A stretch of DNA of 64,000 nt from an uncultured Gemmatimonadales bacterium (lineage in GTDB: Bacteria; Gemmatimonadota; Gemmatimonadetes; Longimicrobiales; Gaopeijiaceae). Position 1 is the stretch's first letter. Every line of letters begins with the position of its first letter. The stretch covers positions 10,703-74,702 of the forward strand of contig CAJWPN010000001.1 in assembly GCA_913045345.1 (NCBI GenBank), in the 5' to 3' direction. Below are positions 6,001 to 15,000 of this stretch, in pieces. Position numbers: made by a program.

Positions 6001-9000
6001 GAAGTCCTAATCCAAGCATGGGTGAGAACTCACCGCCCGCATACCAGATGCGGTCAGGGTCATCGTAATAAAGAATCTTAGGGACTATCCCCCCAATTTT
6101 CTTGTCCGAATTTTCTGCTACATCCACTAGTTTGCTTACAGCACAGGGGTCCACGACGATGTCATTATTCAAGATCAGCAGGTATTCGGATTTGCCCCTG
6201 AGGGTTCGCTCAATACCTCGGTTGTTTCCGCCGGTGTATCCTAAGTTCTGGCCTGTCTGCAGGAATTCAATTTCTGGGAATGACGCCCTGAGGCCCTCGA
6301 AAGAGTCATCAGGAGACCCGTTGTCCACCAGTAGGAGCTTGAGGGTACTGTAATCTGAGTTCAGAAGAGACTGGAGGCATGCAGCTGTCGCTTCCTCGTT
6401 GCACCAATTCAAGACGATGGCTGTGACTATTGGAGGAGTCACGAGAGTTACTCTGGAGTTTCTTGTCTGTTTTGGGGATCCGGATAGAACCGCGCTCCCA
6501 CTTTATCAAGAAGGTCGAGCAAGAATTGACCAATCCATAAAAAAGGACGTAAAGGAGGTAAGTGAAGTTGGGAAGTTCGTACTGTAACGTTCTCTAAGGC
6601 AAGGTGGCTAAGTTTATTGTCAGGAGTAGGACAGGCATATTAGTCCTTACAATCACCCTACCGAAAAAATTTCCTGAAGGTCAGTTTCTTGAAGTACAGT
6701 ATTTGCAAGAATCTTTTACTCTGATGATGCCCTGATGAAAGATCTGAAAGTCGCCCTGGTGCATGAATGGCTCATCTCATGGGGCGGATCCGAGAGTGTT
6801 CTGCAATCTCTTTCTCGGCTTTTCCCGGATGCGCCCATCTTCACATCTATCTATGCTCCTGACTATCGTGTGCGCCGGGTTTTTGCTAAGTGCGATATTC
6901 AACCTGGAGTGCTGCAGTTGGTTCCGGGTGTGCAGCGTCTGTATAGAGGTCTGTTGCCACTAATGCCTTGGGCATTCGAGCGTATGAATCTCAAAGATTT
7001 TGACTTAGTGATTTCCAGCAGCCACGCTTTTGCAAAAGCTGTCAGTGTAGCCCCTGATGCATACCATCTTTGTTACTGTCACACTCCTCCTCGGTACCTA
7101 TGGGACTTGTATGACAGCTACAATCCCGGTCTTCAAGGAGTACTGGGCGGCCCATTACTGAAGTACCTCAAGCGCAAAGATTTTCAGGTAGCCAAGAATG
7201 TCAGTGGGTTTATTGCAAATTCTGCTTATGTGGCTGACCGCATTGCCCGGTCTTACGGTCGTAATGCGACAGTCGTCTACCCTCCGGTGGATGTAGATCA
7301 ATTTGATGCTGTGGATGTTCAGGGGAGTTACTACTTAGCTGGTGGCCGAATGGTTAAGTATAAACGGCTGGACAAAGCCATTGAGGCTGCTAACCGGGGA
7401 AAGTTTCAACTGATCGTGTTCGGTGATGGTCCAGAGAGAGCTCGATTGACAAGATTAGCTGGCCCAACGGTACGGTTTACAGGTGGAGTTACACAGCCTC
7501 AGCTTGCCGAGTTGATCCTCCACAGCCGAGCTTTTCTGTTCCCAGGAGTTGAGGACTTCGGCATTCTGCCTGTGGAGGTTCAGGCCGGTGGTCGCCCGGT
7601 AATCGCCTTAGCCCAGGGTGGGGCTCTCGAGACCGTGAAAGCTGGGGTTACTGGTCTGCTCTATGAAGATGATTCAGTCGATGGCCTGCTAGATGCGGTA
7701 CACAGGTTTGAGCCCAATGCCTTCAACCCAATGGAGTGTCGCTTGAATGCACTCCGTTTCAGCCGTGATCGCTTTGAAAAAGAGATGGCTGAGATCATTC
7801 AGCAAGTGTCAGGGCAAACCTAGTTATTTGTGCCCGTACTCACCGACCTCATTGTTATTGAGTAAAAGAGTAGACAGGACCGCTTAAGCTGAGGTACGTT
7901 TCCTTGCTAATCTAACGGGTATCCAGGTTCTAGCCTGACTATCCCACCCATCCGAAACCAGTCTTATACCTTTCAGCTTGTGAAGCGAGTCTTTGATTTG
8001 GTCGTGGCTAGTTTGCTACTCATCTTAACGCTACCGATCCTGTCGGTAGCGGTTACGGTCGTGTGGCTTAGCTCTTCGGGTCCCGTGTTCTTCGGCCACA
8101 CAAGATGCGGACGCAAGGGCGTTCCATTTAAATGCCTAAAGTTCCGTACTATGGTGGTAGGTGCTCAGGATTGGCTAGTGCAAGATCCCGAGTTAAGAGA
8201 GCAGTACAGAGAAAATGGTTTTAAACTTCGGGTTGAGCAGGATCCGAGGATTACCAAGGTGGGGCGGCCTATGCGTCGTGCCTACCTGGACGAACTCCCC
8301 CAACTGATCAATGTACTTAGGGGTGATATGTCACTGGTGGGACCACGTCCAATTATCGAAGAAGAGCTTGAGTGGTATGGGGACTCTAAAGACGAACTCT
8401 TAAGTGTACGCCCGGGCATTTTCGGGCCCTGGACAGCACAGGGGAAAAGCAGAGTTGATTATCCAAAGCGTGTCGAGATAGAACTTTCATATATCCGTGA
8501 CAAGAACCCCATAAAGGACGGCATAATTTTGGCTAGAAATATACCTGCTGTTCTCTCAGGTCAGCCGGAGAACTAAAGCTGACTTGATTGTGAGTTGGGC
8601 TGCCAACTGCGCTACTAGTATCCACGAACACTATCGCCGGTAAGTCGATGGTCACGCACTAGATCCACCGATTCCTCCAAATTCTGGAACCCCTCATGAA
8701 AGACATATCCAGTAATGACCTGACAAATAATTTCCCTCTTGCTGCTCGAAGTGCTGAGAAAGAACGGTCAGTCGTCCGTATTCTTGGTACTGAAATTGGG
8801 GGTGACAGCGTGGTTGTCATTGCAGGTCCCTGCGCTGTGGAAAATCGTGACCAACTCCTCGATATTGCTGAGAATGTGAAATCACGAGGTGCGCTTATCA
8901 TAAGAGGAGGAGCGTATAAGCCACTTACATTTCCCTATAGAAGTGAGTCATTCTTTGAACTTGGTGAGGAAGGTCTTCGGTATTTGGCAGATGCCCGTGA

Positions 9001-12000: not shown

Positions 12001-15000
12001 TAATCTGAAGCCCGATGCCGTACTTACTGTAGCTGATCGTTATGAAACCTTGGCCACGGCTATCGCTGCATCCTATATGAATATCCCAGTCGTCCATATC
12101 CAAGGGGGTGAGGTAACAGGGTCAATCGATGAAAAGGTCAGACATGCTGTCACGAAGCTATCTGATCTTCATTTGGTCTCAACAGAAATGGCATCTCAGC
12201 GTGTCATCCAGATGGGTGAAGAGCCTTCAACGGTATTTGTCACCGGTTGTCCATCCGTAGATTTGGCAGCTCATGTTCTTGTGGACCCAGAACTCGACTT
12301 TAATCCGGTAGAGCGTTATGGGGGTGTCGGGGCACTCGTCGACCTATCGGAAGGGTATCTTGTCGTGATGCAACACCCCGTCACGACTGAGCATGACCGC
12401 GCACATCATGATGTGACAGAAACCCTTCATGCTATTGGGGAGATTGGGAGTCCCACTCTATGGTTTTGGCCAAATGTAGACGCTGGCTCGGGTGGGACAG
12501 CGAAGGGTATTCGGATGTTCCGTGAAATTGAAAAGCCAGACAATATCCATTTCTTTAAGAACATGCCATCAGAGGATTTTCTTAGGGTCTTATATAACAG
12601 TAAAGGCGTGGTCGGAAACTCGAGTGTAGCCATTCGCGAGTGCTCTTTCTTGGGAGTTCCAGCCGTCAATATTGGCAGCCGTCAGGTTGGACGTGAGAGG
12701 GGGAGCAATGTTATCGGCGTTGATCATGATCGGCACCAGATTACGGAAGCGATACGCAGTCACCTGCGTAATGGGAGATTTCCATCAGATAAACTTTATG
12801 GTGACGGTGTGGCTGGGAAACGGATAGCAGATCTATTGGCGTCTGTTCCATTAACTACTGCCAAGCGACTTGCATACTGATGGCAACGCTTCCGCGGATA
12901 CTGGCCCTGATCCCAGCGCGTGGTGGTTCTAAGGGTGTGCCACGGAAGAATGTTCGTTTGGTCTCTGGCAAACCTTTGATTGCATATACTATCGAGACTG
13001 CAATGAAGGCACAGCACTTATTCCATCGTGTTATTGTGAGTACCGATGACGAAGAAATCGCTATGGTCAGTGAGAAATACGGTGCCGAAGTCCCATTCGT
13101 CAGACCAGATAAACTTTCAGGTGACGAAGTACCGACGCTTCCGGTTGCCCAGCATGCCGTCCAGTTTATCGAGCAGCAAGATGATATCGTACTGGATTGG
13201 GTGTTTATTCTTCAACCAACCGACCCCTTTCGTTCCGTTAGGGATCTGGAAAACGGTTTGGAGATTGCCCTTTCCGCTCCTTGTGACGCGGTAATCAGCG
13301 TAGTCAGGGTATATGAGACACACCCCATCTTTATGAAACGCATAAAAGGTAATCGACTGATCAGCTTTGGTGTTGAAGCGCCGGAGGGTACCCGTAGGCA
13401 GGACTGTGATCCGCCTGCTTATATGAGCAATGGGGCGGTTTATCTTACCCGTCGAGATGTAATAATGGAACAAAACTCTATATGGGGTGCTGTAACTCGA
13501 CCTTACATCATGCCTGCAGAGCGTTCAGTAAACGTCGATAGCGAATTAGACCTCAAGCTGATTGAAGTACTTATGAAGGAAAAAATTGATACCACAGAGG
13601 AATGAATATTAAAGATGAACGGAAGAAGAATATGACGACAGCTAGCAGAGACTCCCTAGAGCAGGCGACAGGCGAACTATTCAGTGAGCTCTGGGGTCCC
13701 TACGATAAACAGCTTTTTGACGAATCGGTGGAACTATTTTTCAGCAGGTTACGCCTTGCATCTTTTGATGCCGATTGGTTTAAGGACAAGACTTGTCTGG
13801 ATGCAGGTTGTGGCGGCGGTCGTAACAGCATTGCGATGGCCAGATTAGGTGCGAGTGAAGTCACCGGGATTGATCTGGGTGTAAAGGGTCTTGCCGATGC
13901 AGAGCGGCGCGCAGAGGGTATGGACAACGTGCAGTTCGAATGTGCTTCTATCCTGGATATACCCTTCGATGATGAAGTTTTTGACCTAGTGTGGTGTGCG
14001 GGTGTGTTGATGATTACGGCGGACGAAGAACGGGCTTTAGATGAACTGGCCCGGGTCGTCAAGAAGGGGGGATACCTCTATCTGCTAGTCTATGCGACTG
14101 AAGGAATGAGGTGGCCGCTTATTCAACTGTTACGGCCACTTGCAACTCATCTTGGAAGGTCAGTAATAGAGGATGCTGTCGCATCGGCAGGATTGGCGTC
14201 GAACAAACGGCGGACTTTTCTCGATGATCTTTTTTGTCCCCGTTTGGATTTCTACCACTGGGACCGACTGAGTAGGATGTTAGCGGACAGAGGATTTCAT
14301 CAAACTCATCGATGGGATGAGGGGTGCCGGCTGGATCATGAGGAGGATTTGGCAAGCTACAGGACGGATTTGGAGAGCCTTCTCTCCATCTTTGTAGCGG
14401 GAGATAGTGAAGAGTTCGGAGAGAACCGTTCACTGTTTGAGTCGGGACGAAAAGCTATAGAGGCCACGGTTGATAGCATCCGGTGGTTCGAGAGTGCTGT
14501 CTCTGAGGGCGAGCTTTCATCTGAAGCCGCAATGGACTGTGTTATTGGTCAGGGACATCATCGCGTGCTCGCAGTGAAAGAGGACTAATACGTTCGTGGA
14601 GATAGAGGCCTAATTTGGTGAAAGCCAGGTGTTCCCAAGACAGAAGAATAGATGGGAAAGCAGGTAGGATTGAAGGTCCTGAAGGTACCACGGACTTAGT
14701 TTTCTGAGTAACAGGTGCTGTGTCCACAACGAGAGTGTCCTCTCACCAAGAGATCTACTTAGCTGGTGTGCTGAGCACTTACCACTGTAGGCGATAGGCA
14801 ATCATATGTGTGGTATATCAGGGATAGTCGGTCCTGGATGGAATCGGACCCAGTTGGAAGCGATGATCGCCATTCAACATCATCGTGGCCCAGACGATCT
14901 CGGTCTCTATATCGATGAACGTCAAAAAGTGGGGCTGGGGCATAACCGATTAAGTATTATCGACCTTTCTCCGGCGGGTCATCAACCGATGTCCAGCCAT

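Follow-up and report, generated by a model that had tools for sequence, protein, structure and literature searches.

The subject of this analysis is a pair of genes, one encoding a protein with the fold of 3-deoxy-D-arabino-hept-2-ulosonate 7-phosphate (DAHP) synthase and the other an AroE-like (shikimate-dehydrogenase-like) oxidoreductase. They are located in a 64,000-nucleotide stretch of DNA (hereafter, the window) of an uncultured Gemmatimonadales bacterium and open a chain of six open reading frames (ORFs) on the + strand. ORF1 (8696-9559, 287 aa) belongs to the Pfam family DAHP_synth_1, and ORF2 (9556-10674; 372 aa, or 369 aa if counted from the ATG at 9565) contains the Shikimate_dh_N and Shikimate_DH domains. 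They are followed by ORF3 (10671-11726) with NeuB and SAF domains (NeuB E-value 7.9e-64), ORF4 (11723-12880) encoding a NeuC hydrolysing 2-epimerase (381 bits with the equivalog model, cut-off 236), ORF5 (12880-13605) encoding a NeuA/PseF-like cytidylyltransferase (CTP_transf_3), and ORF6 (13602-14588) encoding a class I methyltransferase. According to the profile searches, these family assignments are well above chance level. An earlier interpretation made from the DNA alone (the sequence-only reading) had described the six ORFs as chained by overlaps of 1-4 nt, and all the junctions are as described: TTG 9556 lies over TGA 9557-9559 between ORF1 and ORF2, with ATG 9565 as the alternative start, and ORF2 to ORF6 are joined at GTGA 10671-10674, GTGA 11723-11726, TGATG 12878-12882, and ATGA 13602-13605. 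The peptides quoted there (GPCAVEN, LQIGARNMQNF, LLKR, VDPSH, DVHPTPEKA, and ERGIAAPH for ORF1; SVTVPYK, YNTDGQG, GAGGAARA, and NSTTKG for ORF2) were all found in the translations.

The entire 64-kb window is a single polysaccharide island with genes for export (Wzi, Wza, Wzc), numerous glycosyltransferases, carbamoyltransferases, and methyltransferases, as well as two NeuB paralogues (ORF3 and the ORF at 19151-20245) and four cytidylyltransferase domains. Matches to the window were found in the marine metagenome-assembled genome GCA_002348665.1 and in Tara Oceans contigs. No shikimate-pathway genes were detected among the Pfam-annotated window ORFs of at least 150-190 aa, a size limit that short aroQ or aroK genes could escape; within this scope, the earlier statement that no aroB, aroD, aroK, aroA, or aroC lies nearby holds. 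A scan of the window for promoters and terminators gave sites no more numerous than in shuffled sequence and is uninformative on operon structure, and the Rfam scan of the window gave zero matches.

Fold, active site, and spread of the ORF1 family

ORF1 matched the Pfam DAHP_synth_1 profile with an E-value of 2.8e-62 and scored 369.5 bits with the NCBIfam model PRK08673 (cut-off 335) and 321.9 bits with TIGR01361 (cut-off 267.75). Among solved structures, the best match was the DAHP synthase of Aeropyrum pernix (1vs1, E-value 1.8e-80), and the DAHP synthase of Pyrococcus furiosus matched at 4e-77, whereas structures of 3-deoxy-D-manno-octulosonate 8-phosphate synthase (KDO8PS, KdsA) matched at ~2e-20 only, with ~27% identity. 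3D modeling using the AlphaFold2 program (pLDDT 86.6, pTM 0.88) confirmed the DAHP synthase fold. Foldseek analysis of the model found 1vs1 with TM-scores of 0.87/0.92 and 54% identity, and KDO8PS structures appeared no earlier than rank 24. ORF1 lacks a regulatory domain and shares its (beta/alpha)8 fold and ~50-55% identity with the type I-beta DAHP synthases that have none either (A. pernix 1vs1, P. furiosus 1zco/4c1k, Thermotoga maritima 1rzm). The KdsA model TIGR01362 gave 105.7 bits with a cut-off of 314, and the protein has a KP-type motif and not KANRS. As for NeuB, the Pfam NeuB score was 27.3 bits, the SAF domain was absent, and TIGR03569 gave 21 bits with a cut-off of 399.65. The profile placement and the model are thus in line with the sequence-only reading, which had found the type I-beta DAHP synthase/KDO8PS fold signatures in ORF1.

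The residue roles compiled from the crystal structure of T. maritima DAHP synthase with phosphoenolpyruvate (PEP) and erythrose 4-phosphate (E4P) identify the Arg and Thr of the KPRT motif as E4P ligands (PMC6362186). In the alignment with type I-beta enzymes, ORF1 retains the PEP ligands R70 (Arg of RGG), K75 (Lys of KP), R133 (in G131-A-R133, the GAR Arg), K154 (Lys of LLK), and R184 (Arg of ERG), together with the metal ligands C46, H222, and D259; the fourth metal ligand, Glu, is replaced by D248, which is a feature of the subclade of the window. The fold, the PEP site, and the metal site are those of a type I-beta DAHP synthase, but the E4P site, with the Arg-Thr pair of KPRT(S) and the ERGIRTFE loop, is not. 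Nucleotides 8918-8932 encode KPLTF, exactly as had been read previously, with the E4P-binding Arg replaced by L77, T78 kept, and the adjacent Ser replaced by F79. The beta2-alpha2 loop is three residues longer (PYRSESFFELG vs PY---SFQGLG), and the ERGIRTFE loop, which reads ERGIAAPHTHQ in ORF1, is likewise three residues longer. In the model, pLDDT falls below 50 nowhere but in these two rebuilt substrate loops.

Relatives of ORF1 were collected by scanning 185,579 species, each represented by one genome. The scan yielded 170 confirmed stretches, of which the best 80 loci were analyzed; all counts are per species representative. The motifs KP[LM][TS]F and [PAT]HTH were present in 80/80 relatives checked, and the E4P Arg was replaced in every case, by Leu or Met. 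Compared with type I-beta DAHP synthases, the clade reads KPLTF instead of KPRTS, ERG..(P/A/T)HTH instead of ERGIRTFE, and KRHFG instead of KRG, and the three-residue insertion includes an invariant Arg82. An alignment of 16 diverse members revealed Arg82, His156, Arg162, His190, and His192 as new invariant residues. The altered aldose-phosphate site put forward in the sequence-only reading was therefore upheld for the Arg, which is lost, but not for the site as a whole, since the Thr is kept and Arg82, His156, His190, and His192 have been gained; the anionic anchor of the family may have been relocated and not lost. The exchange of the metal Glu for Asp was considered as a family hallmark and rejected, as 57/80 relatives keep Glu and 20/80 have Asp.

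A search of a large protein database returned thousands of matches; the top 120 (66-98% identity, ~287 aa) nearly all contain KP(L/M)TF and ERG...HT. In a library clustered at 50% identity, the family shrinks to a few representatives; its own representative scores 420 bits, whereas the canonical enzymes with KPRTS and ERGIRTFE do not exceed 302 bits. Judged by its motifs and similarity scores, the ORF1 family is a discrete clade, distinct from canonical DAHP synthases. The neighbor-joining tree, a rough guide with weak support, contained 27 members, including that of the window, in one clade, with three more divergent motif-bearing representatives outside it.

The best 80 loci include Dehalococcoidia, Anaerolineales, Gemmatimonadaceae, Planctomycetes, Acidobacteriota, Omnitrophota, Nitrospinota, and Acidimicrobiia as well as Marinomonas, Denitromonas, Azospirillum, Roseibium, Insolitispirillum, SAR11, SAR116, SAR324, and Prochlorococcus single-cell genomes. 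The clade occurs in more than 10 phyla and, among SAR11 and Prochlorococcus, in some cells only. Such a rare but wide occurrence is consistent with a glycan module that moves horizontally and not with a housekeeping enzyme. The plasmid collection contained no member of the ORF1 family; the best candidate, H6 from Paenibacillus, was rejected because it has the canonical KPRTG/ERGIRTFE motifs. In addition, four otherwise canonical I-beta enzymes (P0148, P0149, P0239, P0267) with ERGIRTFE or ERGIRTYE carry KPSTS or KPTTS, so the E4P Arg is not absolutely invariant outside the new clade.

The AroE-like gene and the conserved gene neighborhood

ORF2 matched Shikimate_dh_N with an E-value of 1.6e-21 and Shikimate_DH with 3.4e-8 but remained under every aroE cut-off of NCBIfam (the best scores were 175.9 bits vs 252 and 174.3 vs 200.2). 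The best solved AroE structure, 1nvt (E-value 1.2e-38), aligned in two pieces, residues 19-231 and 302-341. Like AroE/YdiB dehydrogenases, ORF2 has the two-domain fold, the catalytic Lys-Asp pair, and the NADP motif. The catalytic Lys (PYK), the Asp of NTD, GxGGxxxA, and the Arg of NRT are conserved across 61 AroE-like members, as are the ring-binding Tyr of DxxYxP and Gln of MNxxQA. By analogy with the structure of Escherichia coli AroE, we take these residues to serve catalysis, NADP binding, and binding of the carboxylate and ring hydroxyls of shikimate. Unlike in AroE/YdiB, the SxS carboxylate clamp is incomplete, with Ala in place of its first Ser, and the HN motif reads WN.

The sequence-only reading had ascribed 80-100 extra residues of ORF2 to one insert. 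The insert past NSTTKG was found (about residues 232-301), but it accounts for ~50 residues, the remainder being N- and C-terminal extensions. It is a trait of the lineage of the window: the median length of the AroE-like family is 318 aa, the long insert is confined to a subclade, and its use as a family-defining feature was rejected. ORF2 also matches 7cok, a 5-ketofructose reductase of the AroE family, which provides a precedent for an AroE fold reducing a keto-sugar. It is proposed that ORF2 is an NADP-type oxidoreductase reducing or oxidising a ring carbon of the pyranose form of an ulosonic acid.

Gene neighborhoods were counted in the 53 loci in which the DAHP-synthase-like gene has 5 kb or more of sequence to either side, taken from a blastp survey of the 80 species-level loci. 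Genes were called with a simple ORF finder and blastp thresholds, and the high-GC loci contain shadow ORFs. An AroE-like gene was located within 6 kb in 47/53 loci and a Gfo/Idh/MocA (GFO) dehydrogenase in 46/53; a NeuA/KdsB-type cytidylyltransferase was found in 42-46 of the 53 loci (~87%) and a glycosyltransferase of family 2 (GT2), free or fused, in 44 (83%). Thus, the synthase gene is linked to a cytidylyltransferase of the NeuA/KdsB family and a glycosyltransferase, and not to aro genes as in type I-beta DAHP synthases. NeuB-family genes were found within 6 kb in 13/53 loci and within 10 kb in 21/53, and NeuC was found in 0/53. Conservation of the adjacency of all three genes in relatives, which had been suggested as a check, was therefore observed for the DAHP-synthase-like/AroE-like pairing and only in part for neuB.

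Two gene orders prevail in the survey and in annotated contigs of diverse members. In Proteobacteria, SAR11, and Prochlorococcus, the order is cytidylyltransferase, fusion of GT2 with a cytidylyltransferase-like domain, GFO dehydrogenase, DAHP-synthase-like gene, and AroE-like gene; in Acidobacteria and Chloroflexi, it is dehydrogenase, DAHP-synthase-like, AroE-like, NeuB-like, GT2, and two cytidylyltransferase genes. The slot upstream of the DAHP-synthase-like gene holds two non-orthologous GFO types, one WlbA-like and the other with 7bvj as the best solved match; the assumption that all the upstream GFO genes form one WlbA-like family was accordingly rejected. According to Pfam analysis, a GFO dehydrogenase and an AroE-like protein are fused in a single protein of 734 aa in locus L013 (6907-9108), so that such a fusion exists in at least one locus, and the ORF cluster of this protein has members in L017, L022, and L029. 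Locus L009 contains a gene of the WaaA (Kdo-transferase) family (Pfam Glycos_transf_N), with blastp homologues in L026 and L032. The locus of Azospirillum sp. ST 5-10 (L056) has the DAHP-synthase-like gene near GT2 and cytidylyltransferase genes, without GFO or AroE-like genes. The recurrent accessories of the module are clusters of carbamoyltransferases and of fusions of a cytidylyltransferase with a methyltransferase. The carbamoyltransferase cluster was seen in five module loci (L043, L050, L051, L066, L077), and in L066 the carbamoyltransferase gene (Pfam) is placed between the DAHP-synthase-like and AroE-like genes. No phosphatase or sugar isomerase recurs in the module according to the neighborhood survey.

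All five parts of the module are present in the window, though dispersed: the cytidylyltransferase, GT2, and GFO genes lie 30-50 kb from the pair, and for this reason the sequence-only reading missed these conserved partners. The cytidylyltransferase of the NeuA/KdsB type, CTP3 (38962-39690, + strand, 242 aa; CTP_transf_3 E-value 1.2e-24), carries the motif IPARGGSKG.RRKN and matches CMP-Neu5Ac synthetase 6ifd at 5e-23 and KdsB at 6e-9 in the PDB. It is the orthologue of the stand-alone cytidylyltransferase of the module and the best window match of 37/51 module cytidylyltransferases (mean identity 50%). The GT2 gene (43558-44952, + strand, 464 aa) encodes a glycosyltransferase (Glycos_transf_2 E-value 1.4e-25) fused to a divergent CTP_transf_3-like domain (E-value 1e-7). 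It is the orthologue of the GT2/cytidylyltransferase-like fusion of the module and the best window match of 36/36 module fusions (mean identity 44%), and the nucleotide-binding motif of its C-terminal domain is degenerate. The dehydrogenase GFO2 (59609-60682, - strand, 357 aa; Gfo/Idh/MocA in Pfam) is WlbA-like (WlbA 3q2k/3q2i in the PDB, E-value ~1e-60) and is 33-60% identical over the full length to dehydrogenases upstream of the DAHP-synthase-like gene in ~38 loci. It is the orthologue of the type A dehydrogenase found directly upstream of that gene in most proteobacterial-type modules. GFO2 adjoins a TylF-type methyltransferase and a carbamoyltransferase gene (61442-63262, - strand, 606 aa; Pfam), a candidate tailoring enzyme; a second carbamoyltransferase of the window is located at 34774-36486. 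The Capsule_synth gene (21478-23130, + strand, 550 aa; PF05159 E-value 1e-8) encodes a KpsS/KpsC-like protein, which is a candidate transferase for the sugar acid of the module.

The closest relative available (L004/L005) has ORF1 and ORF2 counterparts with 83% and 75% identity. There, the AroE-like gene is directly followed by a 70%-identical orthologue of the window Capsule_synth gene and then by methyltransferase, deacetylase, MaoC, and FkbH-like genes. The 10.8-kb block of the window at 10671-21141 has no counterpart in L004/L005. It contains NeuB, NeuC, cytidylyltransferase, methyltransferase, AsnB, and 2-hydroxyacid dehydrogenase genes, followed by a 508-aa protein without a Pfam match, the second NeuB, and a xylose-isomerase-like TIM barrel, and it looks like an insertion here or a deletion in the relative. 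Since the block is missing in the relative, the overlap-coupling of ORF2 with neuB does exist here, but the two genes came to lie side by side recently and in this lineage only. ORF3-ORF6 are a separate, ordinary sialic-acid-type set, coupled to ORF2 by overlap in this genome only. The earlier view that the pair is hard-wired into a neuB/neuC/neuA operon holds only in part, given this absence and that of neuC from the 53 loci.

Proposed pathway and its alternatives

Four lines of evidence, namely the intact PEP and metal sites with a rebuilt aldose site, the rare and scattered clade, the absence of aro genes nearby, and the linkage to cytidylyltransferase and glycosyltransferase genes, argue that the pair does not serve aromatic biosynthesis and point to a cassette making its own CMP-activated 3-deoxy-2-ulosonic acid. 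The preferred interpretation, to which we assign a probability of roughly 55%, is a self-contained pathway to a new CMP-activated acid of this kind, meant for a cell-surface polysaccharide, beside the ordinary sialic-acid-type set. The sequence-only reading had already separated the pair from ordinary aromatic amino-acid biosynthesis; the lost E4P Arg, the rarity of the clade, and the glycan context agree with this.

In the scheme built on the fold, the residues kept and changed, the clade, the gene neighborhoods, and the fusion, the substrate, the order of the steps, and the product are predicted ones. ORF1 and ORF2 would belong to a mobile glycan cassette of five parts: besides the DAHP-synthase-like enzyme and the AroE-like oxidoreductase, it comprises a GFO dehydrogenase, a cytidylyltransferase of the NeuA/KdsB type, and a GT2, often fused to a second, degenerate cytidylyltransferase-like domain. 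At the first step, ORF1, with its intact PEP and metal sites, would condense PEP with an aldose anchored unlike E4P, which would either carry no phosphate or bind to an anionic site that has moved; the resulting 3-deoxy-2-ulosonic acid would probably have 7 or 8 carbons. The lost Arg and the lack of a recurring phosphatase favor a non-phosphorylated aldose, as in NeuB pathways, but a phosphate or carboxylate could also be anchored at a new place, given that the Thr is kept and that invariant Arg and His residues have been gained. At the second step, the GFO dehydrogenase and the AroE-like enzyme would act on a ring form resembling quinate, most likely by paired oxidation and reduction through which one ring hydroxyl is inverted or fixed; in the simplest scheme, one ring hydroxyl would be oxidised and then reduced from the opposite face. 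At the third step, the cytidylyltransferase would make the CMP-sugar, and at the fourth, GT2 would transfer the sugar into the polysaccharide, with a WaaA-like or KpsS/C-like enzyme possibly replacing GT2 in some loci. In this genome, the pair is placed before the separate neuB-neuC-neuA set, and both sugar acids would probably be co-expressed for the same polymer.

The resemblance to quinate can be inferred from the structure of the pyranose form of an ulosonic acid, in which an anomeric carbon with OH and COO- is followed by CH2 and then by ring hydroxyls. This resemblance would explain the recruitment of an AroE-fold enzyme with a largely intact carboxylate/hydroxyl clamp. Both the GFO-AroE-like fusion and the fact that the GFO types are interchangeable suggest a single substrate on which the two oxidoreductases act one after the other. 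The ketoreduction envisaged in the sequence-only reading is plausible, but the fusion suggests a paired oxidation and reduction instead.

The proposed pathway has the same logic as the Kdo pathway (KdsA, KdsC, KdsB, and WaaA or KpsS/KpsC), in which PEP and an aldose give a 3-deoxy-2-ulosonic acid that is activated as a CMP-sugar and transferred. ORF1 is homologous to KdsA (E-value 2e-20), the module contains a cytidylyltransferase of the KdsB/NeuA family, and WaaA-like or KpsS/C-like genes are found in some modules. Unlike the Kdo pathway, the module has no KdsD-like isomerase or KdsC-like phosphatase, contains two extra oxidoreductases, and usually employs GT2 as the transferase. The NeuB-type pathways (NeuC-NeuB-NeuA; also those of pseudaminic and legionaminic acids, Pse and Leg) use a free, non-phosphorylated aldose with PEP and need no phosphatase, and the cytidylyltransferase of the module is NeuA-like; however, ORF1 is not a NeuB, and NeuC never occurs in the module.

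Several observations weigh against this interpretation. ORF1 clears the NCBI cut-offs for DAHP synthases and retains the Thr of KPRT. The invariant Arg82, His156, His190, and His192 could bind a phosphate or a carboxylate, so the substrate may be a phosphorylated one, and no gene supplying an aldose recurs in the module. In the neighbor-joining analysis, all the motif-bearing sequences grouped together in only 22/100 bootstraps, with an E. coli KdsA sequence as the outgroup. In four loci of one lineage (L016, L018, L021, L034), the trio of GFO, DAHP-synthase-like, and AroE-like genes occurs with no cytidylyltransferase or GT2 within 10 kb. Sampling of neighbors in L018, L021, and L024 gave housekeeping-like genes (SurE, M23/LysM peptidase, phosphoribosyltransferase, DUF1731 epimerase). 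In Azospirillum halopraeferens DSM 3675 (L063), the KPLTF-type gene stands alone as an orphan, surrounded by genes for TPR, DUF2076, Bax1-I, methyltransferase, and rhomboid proteins. The trio of this lineage and the Azospirillum orphan imply that the trio could have a non-glycan role. Some cooperation with NeuB is also possible, considering the NeuB-family genes located within 10 kb in 21/53 loci.

This last point leads to the first alternative, that the pair serves the NeuB pathway by making the aldose of NeuB or by tailoring the nonulosonic acid, the cassette then yielding a modified nonulosonate, one of the two products named in the sequence-only reading. The GTGA overlap of ORF2 and neuB in the window speaks for it, as do the NeuB-family gene directly after the AroE-like gene in the Acidobacteria- and Chloroflexi-type modules and the stand-alone cytidylyltransferase, which is nearer to NeuA than to KdsB. 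It is nevertheless unlikely: within 10 kb, 32/53 loci lack any NeuB-family gene, NeuC is absent from all 53, the neuBCA block is missing in the closest relative, the full PEP-condensing active site of ORF1 would be redundant with NeuB, and the NeuB-like genes linked to the module share only ~29% identity with either of the two window NeuB proteins. The two NeuB-like genes analyzed in Acidobacteria-type modules are short (305 aa at L002:12021-12935; 248 aa at L010:12207-12953), and that of L002 is partial, covering only positions 93-327 of 329 of the NeuB model. These two genes may be truncated or divergent and not encode standard sialic acid synthases.

The second alternative is that ORF1 uses a phosphorylated aldose (E4P, arabinose-5-P, ribose-5-P, or glyceraldehyde-3-P) bound through a relocated site formed by Thr78, Arg82, His190, and His192. 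ORF1 would then be a KdsA-like phospho-ulosonate synthase, and an unlinked phosphatase would dephosphorylate the product before CMP activation. Such a substrate is consistent with a fold and PEP site identical to those of DAHP synthase, with the kept Thr of KPRT, and with the invariant Arg and His residues gained in these loops; moreover, ordinary Kdo pathways often have kdsC at a distance from kdsA. We nonetheless regard it as improbable, because the phosphate-binding Arg is lost throughout the family, always to Leu or Met, the adjacent Ser is replaced by Phe, and the module has no recurring phosphatase.

The least probable alternative, that of a genuine DAHP synthase with a shikimate or quinate dehydrogenase, as housekeeping copies or as a flux-boosting branch for a shikimate-derived decoration, can claim the NCBIfam scores and the 54% identity of ORF1 to the A. 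pernix enzyme, the AroE catalytic and most substrate-binding residues of ORF2, and the trio and the orphan outside glycan clusters, but it conflicts with the loss of the E4P Arg and of the ERGIRTFE loop throughout the family, the sub-threshold aroE scores of ORF2, the absence of annotated aroB, aroD, aroK, aroA, and aroC from the window, the 170 stretches in 185,579 species genomes and the presence in some SAR11 and Prochlorococcus cells only, and the ~87% and 83% linkage to cytidylyltransferase and GT2. The gene context also argues against an aromatic role for any PEP- and E4P-dependent formation of DAHP by ORF1.

To return to the CMP-activated ulosonic acid pathway, the main alpha-carboxyketose synthases are NeuB, DAHP synthase, and KDO8PS according to a mechanistic work of 2025 (PMC12531865). 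It may tentatively be suggested that the KPxTF/PHTH clade represents a fourth class, heading a pathway to a CMP-heptulosonic or CMP-octulosonic acid without known biosynthesis. In one variant, PEP and a C4 aldose would give 3-deoxy-arabino-heptulosonate, and epimerisation of one ring carbon by the GFO/AroE-like pair would produce the 3-deoxy-lyxo-heptulosonate skeleton of Dha (3-deoxy-D-lyxo-hept-2-ulosaric acid). The enzymes of Dha synthesis and its activated form are still listed as unknown in plants in a review of 2025 (PMC12168206), and an earlier review suggests that green algae obtained these genes from prokaryotes (PMC3355719). The cassette is thus a concrete candidate for sugar acids of unknown synthesis such as Dha. 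No paper describing the clade, the cassette, or the gene combination was found in the literature searched, which is consistent with the sequence-only reading, where no described pathway with this gene combination was known; a Geobacter paper naming neuB and phosphoheptulonate synthase was dismissed, the genes being unlinked.

If correct, the proposed pathway would be a new route to a Kdo-like sugar acid and a natural case of a DAHP synthase scaffold retuned for a different aldose, and it would constitute a variable of the surface glycans in the abundant marine SAR11, SAR116, SAR324, and Prochlorococcus (single-cell genomes). Annotation pipelines label the two genes "3-deoxy-7-phosphoheptulonate synthase" and "shikimate dehydrogenase", so that the shikimate pathway is called too often in metagenomes and a probable glycan pathway goes unnoticed. 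Several carriers are cultured, among them Marinomonas ostreistagni USM7, Denitromonas iodatirespirans IR-12, Roseibium sp. MMSF_3544, Insolitispirillum peregrinum, and Azospirillum.

Further features of the window

Duplicated export parts are located near both ends of the island (156-4255 and 56408-59552): two Wzi-like proteins, two Poly_export/SLBB (Wza-like) proteins, and one Wzc-like kinase. A minus-strand run at 23853-29383, kept in L004/L005, encodes a polysaccharide deacetylase, a 347-aa protein without a Pfam match, a MaoC-dehydratase/SDR protein, and a 560-aa protein in which a HAD/FkbH-like DLDGIMWGG motif was recognized by eye. The 101-aa ORF at 29078-29383 has an acyl-carrier-like LDSLG motif, also recognized by eye. 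With the FkbH and acyl carrier protein calls taken from these motifs, the run could be an acyl-decoration unit.

Between CTP3 and the GT2/cytidylyltransferase-like fusion, the ORF at 39721-41940 encodes a 739-aa fusion of a Gfo/Idh/MocA domain with a D-2-hydroxyacid dehydrogenase. It is located in the only clearly higher-GC stretch of the window (0.578 at 40001-42000). In L010 and L027, an ORF 2.4 kb upstream of the DAHP-synthase-like gene has this 739-aa fusion as its best match (~25% identity).

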